Positions 964 through 58,122 of a stretch of DNA of 64,000 bases are shown here, one piece after another (position 1 is the stretch's first letter; the number at the start of each line of letters is the position of its first letter). Position numbers and translations under genes: made by a program. The notes below the pieces were generated by a model. The model was not told where the DNA came from and ran no database searches. It was given only the letters and a program-made list of their open reading frames with translations. The DNA lies in the IMG/VR virus record IMGVR_UViG_3300028584_001238. One strand, 5' to 3'. Origin of the DNA: a virus.

Positions 964-1419
964 TCATTTAAACAAAGAGTATATTTCTTTTTCGATATCA
1001 TGATTATATGGGTCAAAAACAGTAATGGGTGTATGAAATTTTTGATAACATAATAGTTGAAAAGATTCAATTTCTTTTTTATAGATCTCAGATCCAGCAA
1101 ATTGAACCCAGTTAGATACAGTATCTCCAATAAATTCAAAATCAAGATTACCTTCATCAAATAAAACAATATACTTATTGTTAAAAACACCTATAAATTT
1201 ATTATTTATATTCATGCAAAATTCCACATATTCATATATTTTAATAATTCTATATGCACGATCATTAACGTTTTGTGATTTTATCATTTTTTCTAATAGT
1301 TTTATATTTTTTTTTGAGAAAAAATTACCAAATTTTATAATATTTCCATAATCAAATGATTTAATTAATAATTTTTTATATTCATCACTTTTTAATATAT
1401 CAACAATACCAGTACTCAT
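964..1419 (-). CDS. probable immunity protein for upstream nuclease toxin
   Basis: 151 aa, start overlaps the toxin stop by 1 nt (TAATG), very AT-rich; position and size typical of cognate immunity genes. Confidence 0.55.
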   Translation of the reverse strand: MSTGIVDILKSDEYKKLLIKSFDYGNIIKFGNFFSKKNIKLLEKMIKSQNVNDRAYRIIKIYEYVEFCMNINNKFIGVFNNKYIVLFDEGNLDFEFIGDTVSNWVQFAGSEIYKKEIESFQLLCYQKFHTPITVFDPYNHDIEKEIYSLFK

Positions 1420-2303
1420 TATATTTCCTCATATAAACATAAATATTCATTTCTAGCATATACATTTGAAAAAGATTCTATCATTTTTCTTGATAATGTG
1501 AAACTACTCTTAAAATGATAAGCTAAATCTTTTATAGTTGCAACTTTAAGATTTAAAGAGTCTTTTTCAATTCTTGCTTCTGTATTTTTACCACCAAATG
1601 TCCGACCTGCTCTATGTACAGCTTGAGTAACTTCCAAGGTTGTAGCATTATCATTAATAATACGTCCAGTTCCAAACGCTCTATCATATAAAACACCATC
1701 TCGTTTATGAAGATAGCTTAATACGGCTCCTATTGATGGAATATGATCATGTTCTAGATGATCAGTAATTTTCTCAACAGATCTTAACTCTTTGAAAGAC
1801 CCATAATCCCATTCATGTACAGGCTTATTATAACTATTTAAAGGAATATAAACACCTTCTGTATATATTATTTTTTTACCAAAACATTCAAATTTTCTTG
1901 TTTTTGATAACATTTCACCAATTTTTGTAAGCGTCACTATGTGTGTTGCATAGTTTTCTTTATCGGCTGCTAATTTTTTCTTAAATATATCCGTATCTAA
2001 GTTTGCTCCAGAAATAATATTTCCTGCATTCGTTGCTGCAAAACTATGTGGATCAGTAATCAAGTTTTCTGATAACAGATTGTATAAATATTGACGCCCA
2101 AAAGATGATTTTGAAACCTGCCTTGCAATAGAAATAGCCCGTTCTATATTTTTACCTTCGAGTACAGCAGTAAGCATAGTTCTAGCAACGTATTGCTCAG
2201 CAAACCCAGCAATAACAACATTTTTCTTCCATCCAGCTTGAGCTTGAATACTAGAAAAAATAAGAATCAATACAATTAAAAATCGAACCATAATGTCCTC
2301 CAT
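1419..2303 (-). CDS. secreted polymorphic-type nuclease toxin (pyocin S3/Rhs-like C-terminal domain)
   Basis: Sec signal peptide (FLIVLILIFSSIQAQA; likely start Met at 2291 after GGAGG); C-terminal LEHDHIPS...NATTLEV...VH..GRTFGGKNT...D..NL pattern recalled from bacteriocin/Rhs DNase tips. Confidence 0.65.
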   Translation of the reverse strand: MEDIMVRFLIVLILIFSSIQAQAGWKKNVVIAGFAEQYVARTMLTAVLEGKNIERAISIARQVSKSSFGRQYLYNLLSENLITDPHSFAATNAGNIISGANLDTDIFKKKLAADKENYATHIVTLTKIGEMLSKTRKFECFGKKIIYTEGVYIPLNSYNKPVHEWDYGSFKELRSVEKITDHLEHDHIPSIGAVLSYLHKRDGVLYDRAFGTGRIINDNATTLEVTQAVHRAGRTFGGKNTEARIEKDSLNLKVATIKDLAYHFKSSFTLSRKMIESFSNVYARNEYLCLYEEI

Positions 2304-2320
2304 GATTTTAATGCCACTTG

Positions 2321-2349
2321 ATGATATCAGTCTGCTAGATAAAAGTCAA
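2321..2349 (-). promoter_or_regulatory. sigma70-type promoter for toxin-immunity pair
   Basis: TTGACT-17 nt-TATCAT. Confidence 0.6.
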
Positions 2350-2351
2350 TA

Positions 2352-3095
2352 TTAAATCAAACACATTTCAGTCAATAACAATCGGGATTTCAATAACTCC
2401 TTGTCATCTGTGTATTGCTTGTTAAATATAGACAATAATTGTACAGTGCCTTCAACCGTTGATATCAACTTATCATAGTTAGGGTATTCGGTGAATTCAT
2501 CATAAAATTGTTTTGGTGTCACTGAACAGCACGTTAAGAAGTCGATTAAGCAATCATCAAATTCTTTATTGGCTATAAAAAAGTTGGAACTAAGTCCAAA
2601 AGATTTCAAATCTTTTGAAACTGAATACTGCGTTTGATTAGAATAAGTGAATGTTTTAACAATACGCGATGATGGATTTAATACAGTCTTAATTTGTAAT
2701 AAACTATACTCATTACTATGAGAACGTGAAAATTCAAGACTAATATCAAAAGAAGACTGTATAAAATTCATATCATGATCAAGTTTTAAACTGCAAGATT
2801 TGGATTTGTAAGGCATTTTATTGCTAATAACACTATCAGTAATAGTGACATATACACAAATAGCAGTGTTTTCTTTGTGAGTAGATACAAGAATGCTGCC
2901 ATATTTAAATAGATAGAAAATATCAATATTACTGCCAATCATTTGAGAGACTTCCTGAAATGGATTGGGTTCGTTAGATAAATCAATATCAAATACTTGT
3001 TTGAATAAAAAAATAAATTTTGGATAAAATAATGAACCAACATCAAGGTTATCCAAGTATTTTAATTTCATCATGGACTCATGAATTGTTATCAT
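2352..3095 (-). CDS. family A (MxxI-tail) paralogue
   Basis: MITIHE start; FYxxFxEYP.Y and LLKSRLLLTEMCLI tail shared with the array. Confidence 0.85.
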   Translation of the reverse strand: MITIHESMMKLKYLDNLDVGSLFYPKFIFLFKQVFDIDLSNEPNPFQEVSQMIGSNIDIFYLFKYGSILVSTHKENTAICVYVTITDSVISNKMPYKSKSCSLKLDHDMNFIQSSFDISLEFSRSHSNEYSLLQIKTVLNPSSRIVKTFTYSNQTQYSVSKDLKSFGLSSNFFIANKEFDDCLIDFLTCCSVTPKQFYDEFTEYPNYDKLISTVEGTVQLLSIFNKQYTDDKELLKSRLLLTEMCLI

Positions 3096-3789
3096 TTAAA
3101 TAGTTCCTTAATGTTAAGTGGTTTTCAAATCCTGAATAACAAATATGTGGATATTTAGAATGTAAATCCATTAATTTAGTAAAAATTGATTGAACTAATA
3201 AATCATGCTTTATCAATAATGGATCTAACTCATATGACGTTAATTTATGTAAATAATTATAATAGATAACTTCATTAAGACTATCTTTTTCATCATCTAT
3301 TTTATGAACATCTTCTGGATTGATAAAATCCATGTCAAATATTCTTTTGGATTCAATATTGTTTAAAGTCACAGTTGAAAATAAAAAACCAACTTCAAAA
3401 TTGCAATCAATAAAATTCATGTTGTTATCTATCGTTACATTACAAGATTTTGAATTACTAGGAAGTATGAAATCTAAATGCTCATACTTAAAACTAAATG
3501 ACAACGTTAAAGTTTGTTTATCTGGATAAAGGTGTAGTGATGCCATTCCATGAATAAAATGAAAAGTTATGTAAAAGGTGCCATCAGGAGCAATACTAAA
3601 TAACGGCCAACTAAGCTCTGATAAATCAATAATAGCAGTTTGTTGAAAAGGATTCACCAGACCAGCCAAATCAATATTACAGGACTCTTTCAAAAGTTGA
3701 ACTAATTTCAAACTAATAGCCGAAGTCAATTCGTCACCTAAGCTTCTGGTCGTTTTCCTCTTAATTAACTCATTGTAAATAGTATCCAT
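3079..3789 (-). CDS. family A paralogue lacking the conserved tail
   Basis: MDTIYN start, LVQLL..SC.IDL and C.V.ID.NMNF core, but no LLLxMxxI end. Confidence 0.75.
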   Translation of the reverse strand: MDTIYNELIKRKTTRSLGDELTSAISLKLVQLLKESCNIDLAGLVNPFQQTAIIDLSELSWPLFSIAPDGTFYITFHFIHGMASLHLYPDKQTLTLSFSFKYEHLDFILPSNSKSCNVTIDNNMNFIDCNFEVGFLFSTVTLNNIESKRIFDMDFINPEDVHKIDDEKDSLNEVIYYNYLHKLTSYELDPLLIKHDLLVQSIFTKLMDLHSKYPHICYSGFENHLTLRNYLNDNNS

Positions 3790-3790
3790 T

Positions 3791-4603
3791 TTAAATAAGT
3801 CTCATTTCAAGCAATTCTATTTTACGCTGTAATAGATATTTATCAGCAGTGTATTGAGTAAAAAACAAATTTAAACATTGAATAATAGAATCAACTGACT
3901 TCATCAAAGAGTCGTAATTTGGATATTCAGGAAAAACCTCATAGAATTCGACAGAATCGAGACTATTAAAGTTTAAAAAACTAAATAGCAATTCATCGAA
4001 CTCATTAGGTGGTGATTTAAAAAAATGATTAATATTTTTATCAAATAAATTTATCAAATTGTTTTCGTCTACCGAATACAATATGTTGTTTTGATAATGT
4101 AACTTATGAGTTTTTTTTAAATCTTTGTCAATTGCAGTATAAATGATTAAAACTGACCAAACTGGCAAGGTGAAAGGTTTGCCAACAGTAGATTGAGAAT
4201 ATTGAATAACTCTTTTAAATGCACCTTCTTCAAACTGCATATCATGATTAACATTAAGATAACACACATTGCTTTTGTATGATTTTCTCGGAACTTCATT
4301 TGAAAAAGAAAATGACACATTCAAAGATTTAGACGTTGTGTCTACACTAATAAAAGAATTACCATAGGGGAATTTATAAGAAATCTCCAAATCATTGAAC
4401 TCATCAAATGAAATGTTGTGGGAACTAAAAGAATTCTCTACATCTGACAAATCAATGCCACATGAACTATTTAACAGATTAATCAAGTTTGAAGTGATCA
4501 TTGAATTTAACTCATTATCAAGTCTAAAAATAACTTCATCTCTATCATCTATATTGACAATATTGTTTTTTAACACTAAAAGTCTGTCATAAATCGTTGT
4601 CAT
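3791..4603 (-). CDS. family A paralogue
   Basis: MTTIYD start; EFYEVFPEYPNY; ends IELLEMRLI. Confidence 0.85.
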   Translation of the reverse strand: MTTIYDRLLVLKNNIVNIDDRDEVIFRLDNELNSMITSNLINLLNSSCGIDLSDVENSFSSHNISFDEFNDLEISYKFPYGNSFISVDTTSKSLNVSFSFSNEVPRKSYKSNVCYLNVNHDMQFEEGAFKRVIQYSQSTVGKPFTLPVWSVLIIYTAIDKDLKKTHKLHYQNNILYSVDENNLINLFDKNINHFFKSPPNEFDELLFSFLNFNSLDSVEFYEVFPEYPNYDSLMKSVDSIIQCLNLFFTQYTADKYLLQRKIELLEMRLI

Positions 4604-4656
4604 ATTGAAATAGCCTTCAAAAAAATAAGATTATCGCAAGTATAACACACAAGGTG

Positions 4657-5475
4657 CTATACTTTCAATTTTTCTTTATTTTCTTTAAACTGAGTTTTCA
4701 ACATATCAGCTTTAATAATTAACTGAGGCAACATCATTTCCAAACCTACCGATGCTTTTTCTTTCACATGAACATAGTTAGCATTGTATTTCATGAAGAC
4801 GGTGCTTGGATCAACCAAGATAAAATCCCTCAGACCAAAACCTTCTACCACCAATGAAGCGGCGGGTTCCACTTGAAGACTGCTGCCGACTACGACAAAA
4901 ACATCAGATTCTCTAATATGCTTTCTGGCGTCAGACAAAATGCTGTCATCTAACAGTTCGTCAAACAAAACAATATGAGGTCTAATTTGTGCTTTGGTCA
5001 ACATACATTTATCACCCAGTTTAATGTCTTTCTTCTGGTCATAGAACACTTTGGCATTACCGACTGGTCGTGAACGCATGATTTCGCCATGCAAATGATA
5101 GATAGATGAACTGCCAGCTCGTTCATGTAAGTCATCAACGTTCTGAGTGACAACGACAACATGAAAATACTTTTCAAGTTCTTTCAATATTTCATGAGAA
5201 CGATTAGGCTGAGCAGCCATCACTTCCTTACGTCTGTCATTGAAAAAATTGTTTACCTTTTTAAAGTCTTTTTGCAGAGCACGAGCCGTTGCAACTTCAT
5301 CCACACGATGATTTCTCCACAAGCCATCATCAGCCCTGAATGTTTCTAAACCGCTCTCCTGAGAGATGCCAGAACCTGTAAAGAAAGTGATCTTAGGCTT
5401 ATAATCATCAACAGAAACTTTTAACAGAGTGGCTTTATCGAAATCATCTTTTGCTTTAAATATGCGTTCTAACAT
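4657..5475 (-). CDS. cobB: NAD-dependent protein deacylase, sirtuin (CobB-like)
   Basis: TGSGISQESGLETFR, TQNVDDLHERAG, HLHGE, RPHIVLFDE, VVVGSSLQVEPAA motifs; only one Cys, so no canonical four-Cys Zn site. Confidence 0.9.
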   Translation of the reverse strand: MLERIFKAKDDFDKATLLKVSVDDYKPKITFFTGSGISQESGLETFRADDGLWRNHRVDEVATARALQKDFKKVNNFFNDRRKEVMAAQPNRSHEILKELEKYFHVVVVTQNVDDLHERAGSSSIYHLHGEIMRSRPVGNAKVFYDQKKDIKLGDKCMLTKAQIRPHIVLFDELLDDSILSDARKHIRESDVFVVVGSSLQVEPAASLVVEGFGLRDFILVDPSTVFMKYNANYVHVKEKASVGLEMMLPQLIIKADMLKTQFKENKEKLKV

Positions 5476-5586
5476 GTAACTATCCTCATATAAGTCTTGA
5501 AAGTTTAATTTAAAAATAACTGCATGTCAATTTAGTTGATTATATTGACTAGTAAAAATCTAGTGGATAGTAGACAGTAGTCATCT

Positions 5587-6336
5587 TTAAATTTTGCTCA
5601 TGCTAAGCAACAACATTCGAGACTTCAAAAGACGGTTGTCATCATTATATTGTTGAGCAAACAAGTTTAAAAATACAACAGCTTGATTAATGTCATCAAT
5701 AAATTGATTATCACTGGGATACTCTGTAAAGACATCATAAAAATCATCAGGAAACTTTTCACAAAACTGCATGAATTCCTTGAATAATAATTCAAATTCA
5801 AAGTTAGCTTTTAAATAAGTTGAATCAATACCATAATTCATTAGATCAATATAGTCTTCATTTTTGGTATTTTTGTTGTCATATCCGATTTGATTGAAGT
5901 CATTAATACCATTGAAAATGCGAATATAACGAATCAAAGCATAACCTGATGTATCCTTATTTCTCGTTTTTTTTGAAACCGATGTATAAAAGTTAAAATT
6001 AGCATCTATTAACTTCAAGTTATGGTCAGTCTTAATAATGCAACGACTGGAATGAAAAGGGATTCGAAATTTATCTGCATCTTTAATAAAGAAAGTAACT
6101 TCCATATCTTTTTCTTTTGCAGAGACATTAACTTGACCATAATTAAAATTGTAATTAAAGGTAATATCTATTCCAAAAGAAGCCCCATCAGGTTTAAATG
6201 GATTTACTTCATTGGAAAGATCAATTCCATAAACAAGTTTAAATAATGTAACCAGTGGTTCATTTACTTTTGGTGTGTAAGACCATCTAAAAGTGGGGCT
6301 TCTGCAATCAATAAAATTATCATAGAGTGTTGTCAT
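5587..6336 (-). CDS. family A paralogue
   Basis: True start MTTLYD at 6336; ends SRMLLLSMSKI. Confidence 0.85.
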   Translation of the reverse strand: MTTLYDNFIDCRSPTFRWSYTPKVNEPLVTLFKLVYGIDLSNEVNPFKPDGASFGIDITFNYNFNYGQVNVSAKEKDMEVTFFIKDADKFRIPFHSSRCIIKTDHNLKLIDANFNFYTSVSKKTRNKDTSGYALIRYIRIFNGINDFNQIGYDNKNTKNEDYIDLMNYGIDSTYLKANFEFELLFKEFMQFCEKFPDDFYDVFTEYPSDNQFIDDINQAVVFLNLFAQQYNDDNRLLKSRMLLLSMSKI

Positions 6337-6337
6337 A

Positions 6338-6425
6338 TTAAATCCCCTGCATATCAAGCAATAAAATATTCATCAGGAAAATGATTGTCTTTCAGTGCAG
6401 CCATATGTTCTAGTATTGTAGTCAT
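6338..6425 (-). pseudogene. collapsed family A relic (head plus tail)
   Basis: Begins MTTILE like the paralogues; in another frame ends LLLDMQGI-stop-T-ATG; only 88 bp. Confidence 0.75.
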
Positions 6426-6426
6426 A

Positions 6427-7188
6427 TCATATATTCTGCATATCAAGTAAAAGAAGTCGAGACTCTAATAAATAAAATTGATTAATGTATTGGAATTTAA
6501 ATAGGTTTAAAAATTCAACAGCTTTGTGAATATTTTCAATGAAATCAAGATAGCTCGGATACTCTGGAAATAGTTCATCGAATTTATGGGGTGATTTGGC
6601 ACAAGAATCCATAAAATTAGCAAAAAACAATTCAAAATTAATATCGTCAATAAAGAAATTAGCATCCAGACCTTTATCATGAAGTGATATATATTCTTTT
6701 GAAGTTGAATAGTTTTGATATTTAAAAGTAGTTTTTATTGAATCCTTATTAATAATTTTTTGAATCTTAATGTCCGCATACTCAGAACTGTTGTCATAAT
6801 TATTTAAAAGAGATTTTAAAAAAGTAACTTTATAATTAAAAACAGCAAATTTAAAATTAAAATCACGATCAATATAAACTCTGCATTGTTTGGCATTAAA
6901 TGGCGTTGTATAAACATTGTCATCTTTACCAAAAAAGTAAAAACCTACTTCTAACTCATTATCTTTCAAGCTCAAGGTAGCTGAGCCATATTTAAAGAAG
7001 TAATCCATAGCCACTTCTAAACCACATACGCTAATATTCTTAGTAAAATGAGTGGCATCCCCCTGCAGTTCTATGCCAGTTGCCTGTTGAAGCAAGGAGG
7101 CAAGTTTAGAACTAACCAAAGGCGTCATACCCCAGTTCGGTTCTTTTGTATTTTTAAAGTGTAACATCGCCTCATAAATATTCGTCAT
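6427..7188 (-). CDS. family A paralogue
   Basis: Start MTNIYE at 7188; ends SRLLLLDMQNI. Confidence 0.85.
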   Translation of the reverse strand: MTNIYEAMLHFKNTKEPNWGMTPLVSSKLASLLQQATGIELQGDATHFTKNISVCGLEVAMDYFFKYGSATLSLKDNELEVGFYFFGKDDNVYTTPFNAKQCRVYIDRDFNFKFAVFNYKVTFLKSLLNNYDNSSEYADIKIQKIINKDSIKTTFKYQNYSTSKEYISLHDKGLDANFFIDDINFELFFANFMDSCAKSPHKFDELFPEYPSYLDFIENIHKAVEFLNLFKFQYINQFYLLESRLLLLDMQNI

Positions 7189-7189
7189 A

Positions 7190-7990
7190 TTAAATTTCCA
7201 CCATATCAATTAGTAGCATATTTGATTGCAAAGTTTCAAAATTATTAAAATACTGTTCACTGAATAGGTTTAATAGTTCAACCGCATGTTTTTTATGATC
7301 GATAATATTTTGATAACTAGGATAATCAATGAAAACAGTATAAAATTGTTTTGGTTTGTTAGAACAAAGTAAAATGAATTTAACAAATAAATTTTCAAAA
7401 TCATTATCTGGTATAAAGTATTGGTTATTTAGTTCAACATTACCTAAATTAATATATTCTCCACGGTTACACTTAAAATTATCATAAGTAATAATATTAG
7501 AACTAATTTTATGTTCATTAATAATACGTTTAATATGAATAGATGCATACTTAGGATCAGTAACCAATACTGTTCCAACATATTTATTTGGATTTACTTG
7601 AAGTTCGATGTTGTTGTGAGAAAAGTTAACAAAAAAATTAAAAGTTGCCTGCTTAAAATTTAAGTCATTATCGACTTTAACTTCGCAACGAGTTGCTTTA
7701 AATGGAATGTATAGGGAATTACATGATTTTATGGTGAATAGAAAAATGACTTCCAACATTTTATTTTTAGTATATAATGATACTGTTCCATACTTGGACT
7801 TATATTCAATACTAACATCCTTCCCAAAACTAGCCATATTTTGAACAAAGAGTTCGGTTTCATCCGACAAGTCCACATTACAAGCCTGTTCTAGCAAAAC
7901 AACCAATTTAGACATAATTTGATTATTAAGGAAACTGTTAAAGCCATTCAATTTATTGCATAAAAATAGGTGATCATAAATAGTTGTCAA
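7190..7990 (-). CDS. family A paralogue
   Basis: TTG start TTIYD; ends SNMLLIDMVEI. Confidence 0.85.
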   Translation of the reverse strand: MTTIYDHLFLCNKLNGFNSFLNNQIMSKLVVLLEQACNVDLSDETELFVQNMASFGKDVSIEYKSKYGTVSLYTKNKMLEVIFLFTIKSCNSLYIPFKATRCEVKVDNDLNFKQATFNFFVNFSHNNIELQVNPNKYVGTVLVTDPKYASIHIKRIINEHKISSNIITYDNFKCNRGEYINLGNVELNNQYFIPDNDFENLFVKFILLCSNKPKQFYTVFIDYPSYQNIIDHKKHAVELLNLFSEQYFNNFETLQSNMLLIDMVEI

Positions 7991-8029
7991 TTAGATCACC
8001 TGCATATAATAATCATAAATTGTTTTCAT
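7991..8029 (-). pseudogene. collapsed family A relic, 12-aa in-frame head-tail fusion MKTIYDYYMQVI
   Basis: ATG AAA ACA ATT TAT GAT TAT TAT ATG CAG GTG ATC TAA between two full paralogues. Confidence 0.8.
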
Positions 8030-8030
8030 G

Positions 8031-8807
8031 TTATATGGCCTGCATATCAAGTAACAACATGTTTTGTTTTAATCTTTCGTCACTAAAATACTGATGAATA
8101 AACACATTAACGAAATCAATAATAGCGTCAGAATGTTCAACACAGTTAGAAAAACTTGGATATCCATCGAATACCGCATAAAATTCGTGTGGACGTTCAG
8201 TGACAAAATCGATCAATTTATAGAATGTTTCTTCCAAATCGGTATTTGGTTGAAAAAAGCGTTCATCCAGCTTACTTCGCTCAACATCAATAAATACATC
8301 ATCATCCGCATCATCTGAATGTCGGAAGGCAATAGAATTGTAAGCACCAGTCGAATCAATAACCTGCTGGATTTTCATTTGGTTATAACCACCATATCCA
8401 CCATTGTTATGGAGAACGCTGTTTAAAAATGAAAAATACATGCAATATTCAGCACGAACAAAGTTTAAATCATGGTCAACAGAAATAGTACAACGATTCG
8501 CTTCAAAAGGAGCTTTAAAGTTGTCCTTGTGATAAAACGTCACAACCAATTTATCCTGTTGAGTAGAAACATCAACAGAACCATATTCAAATTTGTAGCT
8601 AACACTTAGTTCTTGACCAATAGATGAAATGTCTCTTTTAAACATTAAAGACTTATCAGAGATATCAATGCCATAAGCTTTATGAAACAAAACTTTAAGT
8701 TTATGAATAATTAATGGATCATCCCTGACATCAGAATTAAGGTCTGTTTGGCATTCATAATTAAGTGATAATTTGCATGTCTTGAATTGTTCGTAAATTG
8801 TTTTCAT
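8031..8807 (-). CDS. family A paralogue
   Basis: MKTIYE start; ends MLLLDMQAI. Confidence 0.85.
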   Translation of the reverse strand: MKTIYEQFKTCKLSLNYECQTDLNSDVRDDPLIIHKLKVLFHKAYGIDISDKSLMFKRDISSIGQELSVSYKFEYGSVDVSTQQDKLVVTFYHKDNFKAPFEANRCTISVDHDLNFVRAEYCMYFSFLNSVLHNNGGYGGYNQMKIQQVIDSTGAYNSIAFRHSDDADDDVFIDVERSKLDERFFQPNTDLEETFYKLIDFVTERPHEFYAVFDGYPSFSNCVEHSDAIIDFVNVFIHQYFSDERLKQNMLLLDMQAI

Positions 8808-8808
8808 A

Positions 8809-9588
8809 TTAAATCGCCTGCATGTCTAATAGTAGAAGTCGTGATGTTAAAATTTCAGCATCGTCAGTATATTGTGAATAAAAAAGGTTCAAAAACGCAG
8901 TAGCCTTTGCAATGTTGGTCATAAACTCAACATAGGTTGGATATTCTGGAAAGACATTGTAGAATTCTTTCGGATTATACTCGCAAAAGGAGGTAGCGTC
9001 TACAAGTAATTGGTAAAATCTGTTATTTCCTTGAAAAAAAACTGGATTTAACTCATAGTCTTTTAAATCAATATAATCTGATGTCTCCGTTAATCCATTC
9101 AAATAGCTTACTGTGTTGGTTTGATTGAAATTTGAATCAATAGTACGAGAGATATTCAATGAACTATATACAGGCTCATCACAGTGCCGATCAATTTTTA
9201 ACTTTGAAAAGTTTGCATAATAATTAAAAACAGCTCGCTTGAAATCAAACTGATGATCAACATCAATAGCACATCTATCTGCATTTAAAGGTATTTTATA
9301 ATGATCTAAATTCTTCTTAAAAAAACTAAAATATACGGATAACTTATCATCTTTTAATGAGACGCTTGCTTCACAGTATTGACATCTATAAGTAATTTTA
9401 AGGCTATGATCAAAAATGGTAGAACCAGTATAGATCATATAAGGCTTAAAACATGTTCCTGTTGCATTCAAATCAATATCACACAACTGATTAAGTAGAT
9501 GAACTAATTTTGGAATAATGACAGAATTTAACTCTTCATTAAAAATACGAGCTTCTTTTTCTAACATACGTTCATAGATTGTTTTCAT
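8809..9588 (-). CDS. family A paralogue
   Basis: Start MKTIYE at 9588; ends SRLLLLDMQAI. Confidence 0.85.
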   Translation of the reverse strand: MKTIYERMLEKEARIFNEELNSVIIPKLVHLLNQLCDIDLNATGTCFKPYMIYTGSTIFDHSLKITYRCQYCEASVSLKDDKLSVYFSFFKKNLDHYKIPLNADRCAIDVDHQFDFKRAVFNYYANFSKLKIDRHCDEPVYSSLNISRTIDSNFNQTNTVSYLNGLTETSDYIDLKDYELNPVFFQGNNRFYQLLVDATSFCEYNPKEFYNVFPEYPTYVEFMTNIAKATAFLNLFYSQYTDDAEILTSRLLLLDMQAI

Positions 9589-9589
9589 A

Positions 9590-10336
9590 TTAAATTGCCT
9601 GCATGTCAATAAGCAGCATTCTTGACTTTAAAATATCTATATCATTAATATATTGATGGTGAAATAGATTTAAAAAGTCTTTTGCTTTCTCTATCTGTTC
9701 AATAACATGAACAAAAGAAGGATATTCAGTAAAAACACTGTAAAACATACGGGGATCTTGTTTAAAGCAATCAAGAAATTTGATTAAAAGTTGCTCAAAA
9801 TCATTATTAGGCGTTAAAAAATATGAATTTAACCCAATTGATGACATATCAGCATAAGTTCTGAATGTTGTTGAATGCAAATTGTTATACTCAACAGTAT
9901 TAAAGCGATTAAGATCTTTATCCAGCACATGGTTTATTTTAATGGCACAATACGCCGCTGAACTTTCATCACGGTTTAAGTTATATTTTGAAATGCTGAT
10001 ATAATATTCAAAACGTGCCTTTTCAAAATTCATTTCATGATCGACATCTATTTGACAATGCCATGCATTGAAAGGGAAGCTTTCTTTCATCTTTCTCAAA
10101 AATTTGAAGTCTGCCGTCAGTAAGCCTTTTTTAGATGTAACGGAAGCGACACCATTAGGGAAATGAAACTCAATGGTCACAAAACCACCTGTTATGATCG
10201 TATTACGTTTGAACTCAGCCTCTTGGCCTGACAAGTCAACACCTGAGACAATTTTCAGCAATACAATCAAACGAGCAATAATTGTAGGCTCAACAGAATA
10301 ATCCTTGTTGGTTAACTGTTCATAAATAGTGGTCAT
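9590..10336 (-). CDS. family A paralogue
   Basis: Start MTTIYE at 10336; ends SRMLLIDMQAI. Confidence 0.85.
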   Translation of the reverse strand: MTTIYEQLTNKDYSVEPTIIARLIVLLKIVSGVDLSGQEAEFKRNTIITGGFVTIEFHFPNGVASVTSKKGLLTADFKFLRKMKESFPFNAWHCQIDVDHEMNFEKARFEYYISISKYNLNRDESSAAYCAIKINHVLDKDLNRFNTVEYNNLHSTTFRTYADMSSIGLNSYFLTPNNDFEQLLIKFLDCFKQDPRMFYSVFTEYPSFVHVIEQIEKAKDFLNLFHHQYINDIDILKSRMLLIDMQAI

Positions 10337-10337
10337 A

Positions 10338-11069
10338 TTATATAGCCTGCATATCAAGCAATGAAAGTTTAGCTTTCAAGAGTTTTTTACCATTTTTATA
10401 GTCATTATTGTAAAGTCTCAAAAAATTTTTAAACTCATACTCATAAGTCAACATATCTTTATGTAATGGATAACCGTCAAAGACACTATAAAATATTTCT
10501 GGCTGGTTAAAACAATAATCAATCATTTTTAAAAATTGCTCATAAAAATTATTATTATCACTGAAATAAATTTTTGGTATTTTTTCATCTTTGAAATTAA
10601 CTCGGAGCATAAGAAAACCATACGATGAAATGCTATAAGACAATGCTGTTGTACTTTTAAAATGAGCATCAATTTTTCTGTCTAAGTTAATGGTTCCTTT
10701 TAAACCTTCTCCAACAAATGAGAAAACACTTTTAAAGATTGCTGATTTGTAGTTCATATCATCATCAGCAATAATAACAAGTTCTTGAGATCCTGCGGGA
10801 ACAATACTCCCGGTGTGCTCAATTCTTAAATGAAATTCCACCGCAATTTGATCTTCATTAATGATAATATCGACTACGGCATATTTAAATAAGGAAGTAA
10901 GTGAACAAACACCACAAACAATAGGTTCAAATTCATAATCCATTACAGAATCATCAATAGAACATGCTTGATTAAATAACGTAATCACTTTCGATTGAAT
11001 AATCGTTTGCAACGATTCAGATACAGGAGAAGCGTGTTTTAGCGATTTTATTGATTTTAATATAGACAT
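10338..11069 (-). CDS. family A paralogue
   Basis: Start MSILKS at 11069 after GGAG; ends LSLLDMQAI. Confidence 0.85.
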   Translation of the reverse strand: MSILKSIKSLKHASPVSESLQTIIQSKVITLFNQACSIDDSVMDYEFEPIVCGVCSLTSLFKYAVVDIIINEDQIAVEFHLRIEHTGSIVPAGSQELVIIADDDMNYKSAIFKSVFSFVGEGLKGTINLDRKIDAHFKSTTALSYSISSYGFLMLRVNFKDEKIPKIYFSDNNNFYEQFLKMIDYCFNQPEIFYSVFDGYPLHKDMLTYEYEFKNFLRLYNNDYKNGKKLLKAKLSLLDMQAI

Positions 11070-11127
11070 AAAACACTCCAATAATTTGCAATAACATATC
11101 ACAACGACGTGATTATATCAACAAAAA

Positions 11128-11871
11128 TTAAATATCCTGCATATCAAGTAAAAGAACCTTTGATTTTAAGTCTTTCTTACTTCTAGTATATTGTGTGTGA
11201 TACAGTCTTAAAAATGACTTAAACGCATCAGGATCATCAATCATGTTCTCATGACATGGATAATCTTCAAAAATATTATAGAAAATATCTGGTTTTGTAG
11301 AACAATACTCCAACATGTTCATCAAAGGAGCATGAAATTCATTGTTGTTTTCAAAAAAAACTTTTGGAAATCTAATTTGATTGAAGTTAATGCCACCACT
11401 GTGAAACCCGTTGATTGAATAAACAAGTTTTGATTCAAATGCTAATTGACTGTCAAAAGTCTTATCAATGTAAAAGGCACCTTTAGTATTGTCAGGATGG
11501 TGTTGGAGTTGTTCACCAAAGTTAAAACGAGATTGAAAGGTGGCCTTTTTATAGTTGAGCATGGCATCAACATCAATATGACACCATTGTGAACCTGCAG
11601 GAATCATAGGCACATTATAACTATTAAAGAAGATGCAAAGATGCAATTTGTTTGAATAGGTAGTCAACCTCAATTGTCCATATTTGAATTCATAATGGAA
11701 TTCTTCATCTATAAGAGTTTTTTTAGGAATAAAATAATCTGAGTGGTTGTTTGAAAGATCAAAAGGACAAAGATAATCAAATAATATAAGAAGTTTTTGA
11801 TTAATGAGTGCATTTAATTCTGGATTGATATTACGGTCAATAGATTTTTTTAGTTCTGAAAGAATTGTCAT
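11128..11871 (-). CDS. family A paralogue
   Basis: Ends KVLLLDMQDI. Confidence 0.85.
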   Translation of the reverse strand: MTILSELKKSIDRNINPELNALINQKLLILFDYLCPFDLSNNHSDYFIPKKTLIDEEFHYEFKYGQLRLTTYSNKLHLCIFFNSYNVPMIPAGSQWCHIDVDAMLNYKKATFQSRFNFGEQLQHHPDNTKGAFYIDKTFDSQLAFESKLVYSINGFHSGGINFNQIRFPKVFFENNNEFHAPLMNMLEYCSTKPDIFYNIFEDYPCHENMIDDPDAFKSFLRLYHTQYTRSKKDLKSKVLLLDMQDI

Positions 11872-11935
11872 AGAATAGCTCCAAAATATTTGTCATATAT
11901 TAACATATTCAGGCTATTAAAACAATGAAAATCTA

Positions 11936-12718
11936 TTAAATAGCCTGCATTTCAAGTAATAGAAGCCTTGATTCCACAATCGAAGAATCCTTGGTAAATT
12001 GATCATGGTATAAGGTCAGAAACTTTTTAACAGCTTCACTACTGGACGCTAGTTCTATATGGTCTGGGTATTCTGAAAATACGGGATAGAAAAGATTTGG
12101 TTGCATCTCGCAACACTCTAACATTTCTTTCAACGTATCATAAAAGTGGTGATTGTTTTCAAAAAACAAGGCTGGAAGATCTTTTGTTTTAAGCAAGGAA
12201 TGTGTTTTACGACTATTCCGATTGACGCAATTGATAACTGTGCTTAGTTTGAAATTTTTATCAAGAACTTTATAAAAGAAGATTGTCGCACGATGTTTAG
12301 GGCTACCCAATTTCCATCCAAAATCATAGCGGATTTCAAATTTAGCAAGCATATAATTCAAATGTTCATCTACATCAATATCGACACAATAGGCTCCTGC
12401 TGGAAGGCTTGGATGTTTTTCCTTTTTATAAAATTGAAATGAAACAAAAAAACGTTCGCCACTCAATATAACAAGAGCTTCCGCCTCACCAGCATCAGTG
12501 CCAGTATAGTTGAAATGATATTTTATTTTATAGTGCTGGTTGTAATCTTGATCAAAACTAAAATAATTTCCATCATCAGGAGACATGGTTGAGAGATCGA
12601 TGTTACATACACTTTTAAGAAGTGTAACCAGTTTCTTTTTGATAGCAACATGAAATTCGGCTGGAAACTGATTATCGCCATGATAGTTAAATGTTTTTAG
12701 ATCATCTTTAAAACTCAT
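11936..12718 (-). CDS. family A paralogue (first of array)
   Basis: Ends SRLLLLEMQAI; upstream TTGAAA-17-TAGAAT promoter near 12784-12812. Confidence 0.85.
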   Translation of the reverse strand: MSFKDDLKTFNYHGDNQFPAEFHVAIKKKLVTLLKSVCNIDLSTMSPDDGNYFSFDQDYNQHYKIKYHFNYTGTDAGEAEALVILSGERFFVSFQFYKKEKHPSLPAGAYCVDIDVDEHLNYMLAKFEIRYDFGWKLGSPKHRATIFFYKVLDKNFKLSTVINCVNRNSRKTHSLLKTKDLPALFFENNHHFYDTLKEMLECCEMQPNLFYPVFSEYPDHIELASSSEAVKKFLTLYHDQFTKDSSIVESRLLLLEMQAI

Positions 12719-12821
12719 TAGTTACTCCAAATATGTAATATTTGTTTTAAGGAATTAAGAAAAAACCTTTGAAATGTGTCAGGATTCTAGCATATATTTA
12801 ATTTTTTTTCAATCAAAAAAT

Positions 12822-12851
12822 AAAAAAGGCCACTAAATAAATAGTAGCCTT
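12822..12851 (-). terminator. intrinsic terminator ending candidate ncRNA
   Basis: aaggctacta-loop-tagtggcctt followed by a T run on the minus strand. Confidence 0.75.
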
Positions 12852-13228
12852 CTTTGTAAATAAGGAGTCAGGCGGCGATGAAAGCCATTTGGTAAAGACC
12901 TGACACACAACCTGCATGGTGGAAACAATTCAGTTGTATTATCCAGTTGAGGTTCCTTTTTAATTAGGAAAGCTCGGGGTAATGTCAGGAAGTTTATCTG
13001 AACTAAATTCACTTCGCCGGTCTTTTTTTGACTACACATCTTTTTGTGTGTAATCTCATTTTTAAGCTCATGTCCTCTGCAAAAGATCCCTTAGCAGAAC
13101 ACTACCTTTGATTTTTTTAAGCAAAACAACACAGAATTCAAGGCTAAACTGTTAGTTGTCGTCCGCTTTCCACATCCAGTAATAACACACGCAGGAGTTA
13201 TTACTGAAATCTTTTATAACCGTAATAA
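12825..13228 (-). ncRNA. candidate ~400-nt structured RNA of unknown class
   Basis: Bounded by a near-consensus promoter and a terminator; many stems whose G-U pairs work only on the minus strand; no convincing protein ORF. Confidence 0.55.
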
Positions 13229-13234
13229 TATGAG

Positions 13235-13263
13235 ATTATAACAAATAACACTTAAAAAGTCAA
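13235..13263 (-). promoter_or_regulatory. strong sigma70-type promoter
   Basis: TTGACT-17 nt-TATAAT. Confidence 0.8.
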
Positions 13264-13265
13264 TG

Positions 13266-13820
13266 TTAAATAGCCATGATTTCTTTTTCTTTCTGAGTTA
13301 ACAATCCATCAATAGTCGCCATCGTCTCATCAACGTCTTTCTGAATGGAATTACTCAATCGTTTTTCATCGTTTTCGTTGATTTCTTTATTCTTCAATTG
13401 TTTCTTATAGGCAGTAAAAGCATCTCTACGAAGATTACGTACTACAATGCGAGCACTTTCAATGTTTTGACGTAACTGCTTGATATACATTTTACGGGTT
13501 TCTTCGGTCAGTGCTGGTAACGGGACATAGATATTGATGCCAGTATTTGAAGGATTTAAGCCTAGTCCAGCGTTCAAGATAGACTTTGTGATGGCTCCTA
13601 CCGATTTGGGGTCAAATGCAAGCACTTTGAGTGTGCGAGCGTCTTCTACAACGATGGTTGCCATTTGTTTAAGTGGTGATTTTGCATTTTGGTATTCAAC
13701 AATGACTGAATCCAGTAAGCTGGGATGTGCTCGACCTGTTCGAATCTTAGCCAACGTAATCTTTAAAGACTCAATGGCTTTTGATAATTCTTTTTGTGTT
13801 TCTTTTTTAACATTAGTCAT
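13266..13820 (-). CDS. frr: ribosome recycling factor
   Basis: IRTGRAHPSLLD, LGLNP, P.LTEETRK, ARIVVRNLRRDA, KEKEIM motifs; 184 aa from ATG 13820. Confidence 0.95.
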   Translation of the reverse strand: MTNVKKETQKELSKAIESLKITLAKIRTGRAHPSLLDSVIVEYQNAKSPLKQMATIVVEDARTLKVLAFDPKSVGAITKSILNAGLGLNPSNTGINIYVPLPALTEETRKMYIKQLRQNIESARIVVRNLRRDAFTAYKKQLKNKEINENDEKRLSNSIQKDVDETMATIDGLLTQKEKEIMAI

Positions 13821-57688: not shown

Positions 57689-57762
57689 TGGCCGGTGAAG
57701 TAGGACTTGAACCCACGAGTATGGTTACAACACCATTTGCTCACCATTTGAGCGTTTCACCG
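57689..57762 (-). tRNA. tRNA-like gene with aberrant anticodon arm (identity unresolved)
   Basis: Perfect 7-bp acceptor CGGTGAA/TTCACCG, G73, encoded CCA, D and T arms; anticodon stem ATGGT/ACCAT closes only a 6-nt loop GTTGTA. Confidence 0.7.
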
Positions 57763-57893: not shown

Positions 57894-58015
57894 TGGTGCA
57901 GATGGCAGGATTTGAACCTACGTTACCGATGTTGCAAGGCACTCACGCCTTAACGGTAGAGCAACCTTTATTCAAGGACGGAAGGCCAACTCTCCTATTA
58001 CACTCACACACCCGC
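57894..58015 (-). tRNA. 122-nt tRNA-like RNA (Leu-like ends, expanded interior)
   Basis: T arm GTAGG-TTCAAAT-CCTGC, acceptor GCGGGTG/CATCTGC, A73, CCA; own promoter TTGAAC-17-TAGAAT at 58064-58092. Confidence 0.55.
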
Positions 58016-58122
58016 GTTACAATCCTGAGTGACTTTGAAGCTGTCGTCTCATTCAATGTAGCCATTCTAGCAAACCTTTCAGCCTTGTTCAAGACCTTTT
58101 TTCATCTTTTTTTAAGTAGATC

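Follow-up and report, generated by a model that had tools for sequence, protein, structure and literature searches.

Background

6S RNA is a rod of ~200 nucleotides (nt) in which the 5′- and 3′-proximal sequences form a closing stem, followed by a central bubble and then an apical stem (PMC8876501). The large RNAs ROOL, GOLLD and OLE form RNA-only homo-oligomers (PMC12286853). Here we describe a locus of IMG/VR virus record IMGVR_UViG_3300028584_001238, of which one stretch of 64,000 nt (the window) was analysed. On its minus strand, directly after frr, the gene for ribosome recycling factor (RRF), lies what is probably a gene, transcribed in its own right, for a folded non-coding RNA of ~410 nt that represents a new family; to this is attached a proposal that the RNA binds a partner. 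An initial annotation, made from the letters of the window, had flagged positions 12822–13263 as a stand-alone structured RNA with a 6S-like domain and had considered it either a decoy for RNA polymerase or a new large phage RNA.

Large, intricately folded RNAs without a protein product are rare and have repeatedly proved to be ribozymes, machines or self-assembling cages. ROOL, OLE and GOLLD measure ~580–800 nt, and the RNA described here, at ~410 nt, is smaller. DapZ and MicL of enterobacteria are small RNAs (sRNAs) that are embedded in the 3′ untranslated region (UTR) of a gene and have an internal promoter of their own; sRNAs of this type are 80–300 nt long, with a short seed and little conserved structure.

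The new RNA shares features with each of these. Like 6S RNA, it is promoter-driven, protein-less and presumably abundant, and from the window sequence alone a stem can be drawn that closes a region with large unpaired strands. Unlike the 6S rod with its paired ends (PMC8876501), it is ~410 nt long, branched and unpaired at its ends. With the ornate RNAs (GOLLD, RF02032; ROOL; OLE; raiA) it has in common a stand-alone gene, a large covarying multi-helix fold, long invariant loops, A-rich junctions, a phage-like carrier and, as for most of them, no known biochemical function, but it matches no Rfam model and its helix layout is another. As with sRNAs of the DapZ/MicL type, its promoter lies at the end of an upstream coding gene with which it shares a terminator, it may occur alone or as the 3′ end of an mRNA, and it ends in a U-rich linker, a terminator and a U tail; it differs from them in its covarying core of ~300 nt and in that no target was identified.

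The RNA gene and its relatives

The gene is delimited by the following signals. Coordinates are those of the window, and RNA index i is window position 13235 - i, RNA index 1 being 13234.

13235..13263, minus strand: promoter, sigma-70-type TTGACT-17-TATAAT with an extended -10 TG, 11 of 12 matches
12816..13229, minus strand: predicted RNA, ~410 nt, its end being the U run after the terminator
12822..12855, minus strand: intrinsic terminator, a 14-bp stem and then a U run (RNA 382–393 with 400–411)

The promoter begins 3 nt past the frr stop codon, and the RNA start at ~13229 was derived from the position of the -10 box. The terminator was the sole one found on the minus strand within 12500–13500, and a U-rich linker with an invariant UUAUU precedes it. 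The minus strand folded to -107.6 kcal/mol (z -3.9), with none of 100 shuffled sequences as good; the plus strand (z -1.5) was not clearly better than its shuffles. The GC content of the RNA gene (0.37) was slightly higher than that of its surroundings (~0.32).

Relatives were located via the RRF protein in four IMG/VR contigs and, via a protein database, in further metagenome contigs. After removal of duplicates the alignment held 11 distinct sequences in three clades: clade A (the window, L001 and L002), clade B (L137 and L154; ~82% identical to clade A) and clade C (L003, L004, L138, L139, L141 and L144; ~68% identical to clade A). All relatives have the same gene order, in which frr is followed by a gap of ~500 bp with the RNA and then by a tandem array of paralogous genes (members of ~255 amino acids, aa), and in every one of them the gap between frr and the array aligned with the flagged stretch. 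Nucleotide identity between clades A and C was 69% in the RNA, 76% in frr and 61% in the downstream gene, and only 33% in the spacer past the terminator.

A near-consensus promoter and a terminator had been read in the window by the initial annotation as bracketing the unit; both were scored at that place, and alignment and signal scoring found them in all three clades. The promoter was TTGACT-17-TATAAT with TG in clade B (L137) and TTGATC-17-TATAAT with TG in clade C (L003), and the terminator stem was maintained in clades B and C through compensatory changes. The strength of this promoter and its host-type sequence suggest that unmodified host polymerase would transcribe the gene.

The RNA occurs as one copy per related record, and no paralogue was found in the window or in the four related records of 150–190 kb. 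Searches by blastn and megablast against 50,697 phage records gave no match to the locus. Motif scans of IMG/VR returned the same four contigs and otherwise chance matches, an RRF-profile scan of IMG/VR gave no contigs beyond these four, a metagenome scan gave only the already-known 1.86-Mb contig, and a scan of GTDB species genomes gave no genuine relative. The next-closest RRF (68% identity) lies on L135 (Logan SRR22103699 contig, 8,517 bp), where no copy of the RNA was found within the 8.5 kb and where the gene context differs, a DUF305 protein adjoining; L135 marks a more distant lineage of frr-carrying elements. As far as found in these searches, the RNA family is confined to a small group of giant, ORFan-rich, phage-like elements.

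A fold conserved by compensatory changes

A fold model was built from RNAalifold runs (5 and 10 sequences) and per-clade folds. Compensatory changes were present in 19 of 106 pairs predicted by RNAalifold from 5 sequences and in 16 of 80 predicted from 10. The comparative model comprised 79 pairs, 97% canonical, of which 20 carried compensatory changes among the 11 sequences; with the 3′ partner slid by 1–3 columns as a control, 37–51% were canonical and 1–4 compensatory. H1 and the outer stem of H9 (260–262/284–286) were judged apart from the 79 pairs, since the alignment shifts there. In a test independent of the alignment model, the fold predicted from the window alone was taken and those pairs were counted in which both partners differ in a relative. 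Pairing was kept in 12 of 18 such double changes in L003, 15 of 21 in L144 and 8 of 9 in L137, against 15 of 46, 15 of 45 and 2 of 7 in shifted controls (Fisher p = 0.014, 0.004 and 0.024, respectively). Covariation among homologues, which the initial annotation had named as a check, is present above the shifted controls.

G-U pairs made up 14.5% of paired cells, and three pairs were G-U in all 11 sequences. The structure is therefore possible only in the minus-strand transcript, the strand that the G-U pairs of the window had already been taken to favour.

The elements of the fold, from 5′ to 3′, are:

13175..13208, minus strand: H1, 5′ hairpin (RNA 27–38 with 49–60)
13164..13173, minus strand: 5′ strand of the long-range helix H2, GUGGAAAGCG (RNA 62–67 and 69–71)
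13125..13163, minus strand: H3 hairpin (RNA 72–78 with 104–110, 84–86 with 101–103)
13107..13124, minus strand: A-rich junction of 18 nt (RNA 111–128), with the invariant 3′ part AAAAAUCAAA
12978..13106, minus strand: inner three-hairpin domain, closed by H4 (GGUA/UACC; RNA 129–132 with 254–257)
RNA 133–137 with 161–165: H5
RNA 138–141 with 155–158: H6
RNA 180–188 with 197–205: H7
RNA 218–224 with 242–248: H8
12949..12975, minus strand: H9 hairpin (RNA 260–262 with 284–286, 264–267 with 279–282)
RNA 285–287 with 303–305 and 290–291 with 299–300: H10 (weak)
12932..12948, minus strand: invariant 17-mer AACUGGAUAAUACAACU (RNA 287–303)
12919..12927, minus strand: 3′ strand of H2, UGUUUCCAC (RNA 308–316), with an invariant CAUG next to it
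12867..12904, minus strand: H11, 3′ hairpin (RNA 331–337 with 362–368, 349–351 with 359–361)

The overall layout is thus a 5′ hairpin, a core of about seven hairpins with A-rich junctions that is closed by H2, then H11, the U-rich linker and the terminator. The 5′ tail of 26 nt is variable and unpaired, and the 5′ and 3′ ends do not pair with each other. H1 was present in all 11 sequences with compensatory pairs, its stem sequence being almost wholly rewritten between clades A/B and clade C. All 99 cells of H2 were canonical, and its three variable pairs altered by wobble-compatible steps only. The 10 pairs of H3 were 100% canonical, 4 of them compensatory, around a 14-nt loop that is nearly invariant. 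The invariant junction block AAAAAUCAAA extends as GGU into H4. Compensatory pairs numbered 1 in H4, 2 in H6, 5 in H7 and 3 in H8, and the loop of H5/H6 (RNA 133–165) includes GGGAUCUUUUG. H9 was found in 11 of 11 sequences, with GAG/CUC replaced by GAC/GUC and U-A by C-G. The 17-mer AACUGGAUAAUACAACU was identical in all 11, unpaired when its segment was folded alone, and unique in the window. H11 consists of a 7-bp stem, an 11-nt one-sided internal loop and a GGC/GCC tip, and is nearly invariant (109 of 110 cells canonical), the closing pair alone varying from G-C to G-U; CAUG and UUGUGU are invariant between the H2 3′ strand and H11. A pseudoknot scan for stacked, fully compatible column pairs revealed none outside the model with more than one compensatory pair. 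Covarying helices interspersed with long invariant loops and junctions are characteristic of RNAs that adopt a defined tertiary fold and offer a partner fixed surfaces.

Some stems drawn by the initial annotation recur in this model. The pairs agtaataac/gttattact (H1), gattacaca/tgtgtagtc (H7) and ttcct/aggaa (H9) were kept with compensatory changes, and tgaa/ttca, the tip of H8, was also kept, but in clade C only with a register shift. Others dissolved on comparison. The stem cctgacat/gtgtcagg is perfect only in the window; of the 11 sequences, 9 carry a G-G mismatch in it and 6 a second mismatch, and its strands compete with the covarying H8 and H4 and with the invariant H11. The stem cggcga/tcgccg had uncompensated A-C mismatches in 6 and 8 of the 11 sequences, and clade C members show C, A or U in one freely drifting column of aacct/aggtt. 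The 3′ domain that had been drawn with a closing stem, a two-sided bubble and a branched upper stem was not conserved, its region resolving into H8, H9, H10 and H11.

This bears on the decoy reading, in which an open-promoter mimic within the RNA would sequester the sigma-70 holoenzyme until released by synthesis of product RNA. An abundant-looking, stand-alone, promoter-driven RNA would suit that role, and in the window alone a region of large unpaired strands can be enclosed by the 8-bp stem cctgacat/gtgtcagg. This closing stem, however, carried mismatches in 10 of the 11 sequences, and its strands overlap with the supported H8, H4 and H11, while the RNA as a whole is branched, unpaired at its ends and twice the size of 6S RNA (PMC8876501). 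The 6S family model RF00013 was silent in the window, at E-values (E) up to 10, and in the four related records, while control genomes gave matches. With neither a family match nor the bubble-defining stems kept, the RNA does not have a 6S-like architecture, and a decoy of this kind is very improbable; the “6S-like” shape is, as judged from the alignment, an artefact of reading one sequence.

Comparison with known RNA families

All 4227 families of Rfam 15 were searched with gathering scores across the window and with E up to 10 across 12600–13400. The searches returned only tRNAs and chance matches, and the locus gave no match to 6S, transfer-messenger RNA (tmRNA), RNase P, SRP, GOLLD, ROOL, OLE or raiA, nor to any riboswitch or leader family; the comparison with 6S, tmRNA, GOLLD, ROOL and RNase P that the initial annotation had asked for was accordingly negative. 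In the four related records, RF00010 (RNase P) gave no match, and RF00023 (tmRNA) matched only another, small tRNA-like RNA elsewhere. ARAGORN found no tmRNA in the window. A GGAAAG motif shared with RNase P pairs with UUUCC in this RNA, which differs from its P4-region arrangement in RNase P.

Being stand-alone, covarying, protein-less and without an Rfam match, the predicted RNA makes up a new family among the large structured RNAs carried by phages, a loosely defined class, so that this second suggestion of the initial annotation held up.

A more specific version is that the RNA would self-assemble, forming a homo-oligomer like those of ROOL, GOLLD and OLE through kissing loops and A-minor contacts, with a function tied to assembly. 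It has the large conserved multi-helix fold, the A-rich junctions and the invariant loops for this, and a phage-like carrier, as have many ROOL and GOLLD copies. A quasi-palindrome, GGGAUCUUU, lies in an invariant hairpin loop (13081–13093, minus strand) and could self-pair between molecules, although it can equally fold back within one molecule; the loops being invariant, intermolecular covariation offers no evidence either way. Against self-assembly also stand a size below that of ROOL, OLE and GOLLD and the silence of the Rfam models for all three, though these RNAs do form such complexes (PMC12286853). Self-assembly of this sort is, on balance, unlikely. Between two molecules GGGAUCUUU would form up to 8 bp (4 Watson-Crick and 4 G-U), which makes it a candidate site of kissing-loop dimerisation.

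Coding potential

Open reading frames (ORFs) of 20, 34 and 68 codons exist at the locus in the window. The first of these is the basic 20-codon ORF that the initial annotation had kept as a possibility; in clade C it shrinks to AUG-AAG-UAA (2 codons), and its length in clades A and B ranges from 11 to 22 codons. A frameshift disrupts the 34-codon ORF in clade C. The 68-codon ORF is shortened to 26–52 codons in 5 of 11 sequences, and its frame changes across invariant nucleotides: the long frames that survive read the 17-mer AACUGGAUAAUACAACU as QLDNTT in clade A and as NWIIQL in clade C. The 17-mer being read in different frames by different clades, it is therefore the nucleotides that are kept, not the amino acids. 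Variable columns were distributed over the three codon phases as 35/43/37, without 3-nt periodicity, Pfam gave no match for the 68-aa product, and no ORF was conserved in frame and length among the 11 sequences. The initial annotation's view that the unit encloses no credible protein gene is thus borne out, and conservation follows pairing rather than an internal ORF.

These results also concern the idea that the transcript is an mRNA for a small protein, possibly type I toxin-like. Type I toxin mRNAs are likewise long and highly folded, and the three ORFs could in principle be candidates, but every one of them is truncated, frameshifted or startless in other clades, invariant nucleotides fall into different frames by clade without codon periodicity, and Pfam is silent for the longest product; such an mRNA is extremely improbable.

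Search for base-pairing targets

An RNA with an unpaired invariant segment might act as a base-pairing regulator or sponge, with the 17-mer or the block before H11 as seed and the 3′ end as an Hfq-type module. The 17-mer does not vary among the sequences and is left unpaired by local folding, and the 3′ hairpin, invariant UUAUU, terminator and U tail resemble the Hfq-binding modules of enterobacterial sRNAs. No complementary site (up to 2–3 mismatches) was found above control level, however, in the window or the four 150–190 kb records, and complementarity to E. coli rRNA or tRNA did not exceed chance; the target search covered the window, the related records and these E. coli RNAs, the host genome not being searched. 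Base-pairing sRNAs do not usually need a covarying core of ~300 nt either. We consider this role unlikely, if perhaps a shade less so than self-assembly.

Genomic context

The genes and signals next to the RNA are:

13266..13820, minus strand: frr (an orphan gene), ribosome recycling factor of 184 aa (Pfam RRF, E 1.8e-52)
12784..12812, minus strand: second promoter, TTGAAA-17-TAGAAT with TG, serving the paralogue array (start 12718)

The frr gene lacks its own terminator. Transcription of frr is thus expected to continue across the RNA gene and to end at the terminator behind it, which would make the RNA the 3′ UTR of the frr mRNA as well. The array promoter was also scored in L137 and was seen by eye in L001, L002 and L004. 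In L003 (clade C) no promoter was scored between the RNA terminator and the first array gene (4043–4110), and the array there may be transcribed from a weak extended -10 promoter or by read-through.

The locus could on these grounds be viewed as a cis element, either a 3′ UTR that stabilises or tunes the frr mRNA, which should end with this RNA, or a leader that controls read-through into the array, for which the arrangement in L003 might speak. The RNA, however, carries a near-consensus promoter of its own in all clades, and a separate promoter for the array is present in the window, L137, L001, L002 and L004. By inspection, no complement of the terminator's 5′ arm that could form an antiterminator lies upstream of it, and no riboswitch or leader family matched. 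A cis-acting role is improbable.

The array after the RNA spans 1419–12718 (minus strand) of the window and 7059–12510 of L132, and comprises a dozen or more paralogous genes of ~250–270 aa. Its proteins gave no Pfam or PHROG match, and its first member diverges strongly between clades (42–61% nucleotide identity).

Within 5 kb of the RNA lie the genes for RRF and a tryptophanyl-tRNA synthetase (TrpRS, trpS) and another RNA-only unit (a minigene RNA). Huge phages carry RRF, tmRNA and similar factors (PMC7162821). Most proteins of the window were without a Pfam or PHROG match; the few matches besides RRF were a TrpRS/TyrRS-type synthetase, Lgt, a cation-efflux protein, a DEDDh-like domain, a methyltransferase-like protein and a protease.

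Contigs carrying the locus include L133 (JGI Ga0308158_10000001) of 1,859,102 bp, L132 (ENA) of 1,281,823 bp and L155 (JGI Ga0370511_0000001) of 834,842 bp, far larger than the largest described phage genome of 735 kb (PMC7162821). IMG/VR lists pieces of 150–190 kb of such contigs as “provirus”, 50–59% complete. In a search on the nature of the element, the TerL profile (PF03354) gave no match, and the Gp23 profile (PF07068) was silent in control genomes too and hence uninformative.

Two further RNA features were observed. In all four related records the tmRNA model gave weak, below-threshold end-to-end matches (L158, at G001:57102-57204, L159, L160 and L161; E 5e-9 to 8e-5) to an RNA of ~85–125 nt, which probably corresponds to window ~57894–58092; the matches suggest a relative of tmRNA that consists of the tRNA-like domain only. 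The match in G004 (L161) was also called a tRNA by the tRNA model. At window 57692–57762 (minus strand) the Rfam tRNA model scored 34 bits (gathering score 29) and ARAGORN called none; this may be an aberrant or degenerate tRNA.

Proposed function

We propose the following course of events. Host sigma-70 RNA polymerase would start at the extended -10 promoter after the frr stop codon and stop at the strong intrinsic terminator, and the RNA would also form the 3′ end of frr transcripts. It would then fold into a 5′ hairpin, a core closed by the GUGGAAAGCG/UGUUUCCAC helix, and the 3′ hairpin, U-rich linker and terminator, and the folded core would show its invariant loops and the largely unpaired 17-mer to a conserved partner. 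Tentatively, and with less confidence than in the RNA gene itself, we suggest a stable partner-binding RNA whose partner would most plausibly belong to the translation apparatus handled by this island (frr, the minigene RNA and trpS).

Several points weigh against the gene and the function proposed for it. The alignment comprises three clades only, and most compensatory changes trace to two or three branches; the H2 core, H10b and H11 are invariant and so beyond the reach of covariation. Around H9/H10 the pairing can be drawn in two ways, with 3-bp stems near position 285 that exclude each other and both look supported. The RNA is known here from sequence alone, and its carrier element may be a phage, a provirus or another replicon. 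A link to translation is suggested only by the neighbouring genes of close relatives, which is weak evidence; complementarity to E. coli 16S, 23S and 5S rRNA and to three tRNAs was no more than shuffles gave, and sites complementary to the invariant blocks (window) or to the 17-mer (four related records) did not exceed control level.

A narrower version makes the RNA, transcribed together with frr, a dedicated partner of the element's own RRF, its invariant loops engaging post-termination ribosomes or RRF itself. This is a long shot, about as improbable as the cis-acting role. If true, the RNA would be a cofactor or decoy that redirects ribosome recycling during takeover, and we know of no precedent for a translation-control RNA acting in this way.

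Significance

The predicted RNA is well defined: its ends are clear, its secondary structure can be put to the test and its invariant loops are long. Its small size suits probing and cryo-EM (cryo-electron microscopy). Its locus, in a translation-related island of contigs of 0.8–1.9 Mb, offers a handle on how giant elements may use RNA, besides proteins, toward their host. Even if the RNA binds none of ribosome, RRF and RNA polymerase, it would still be a clean new family for RNA catalogues; if it binds one of them, it would represent a new regulatory principle.

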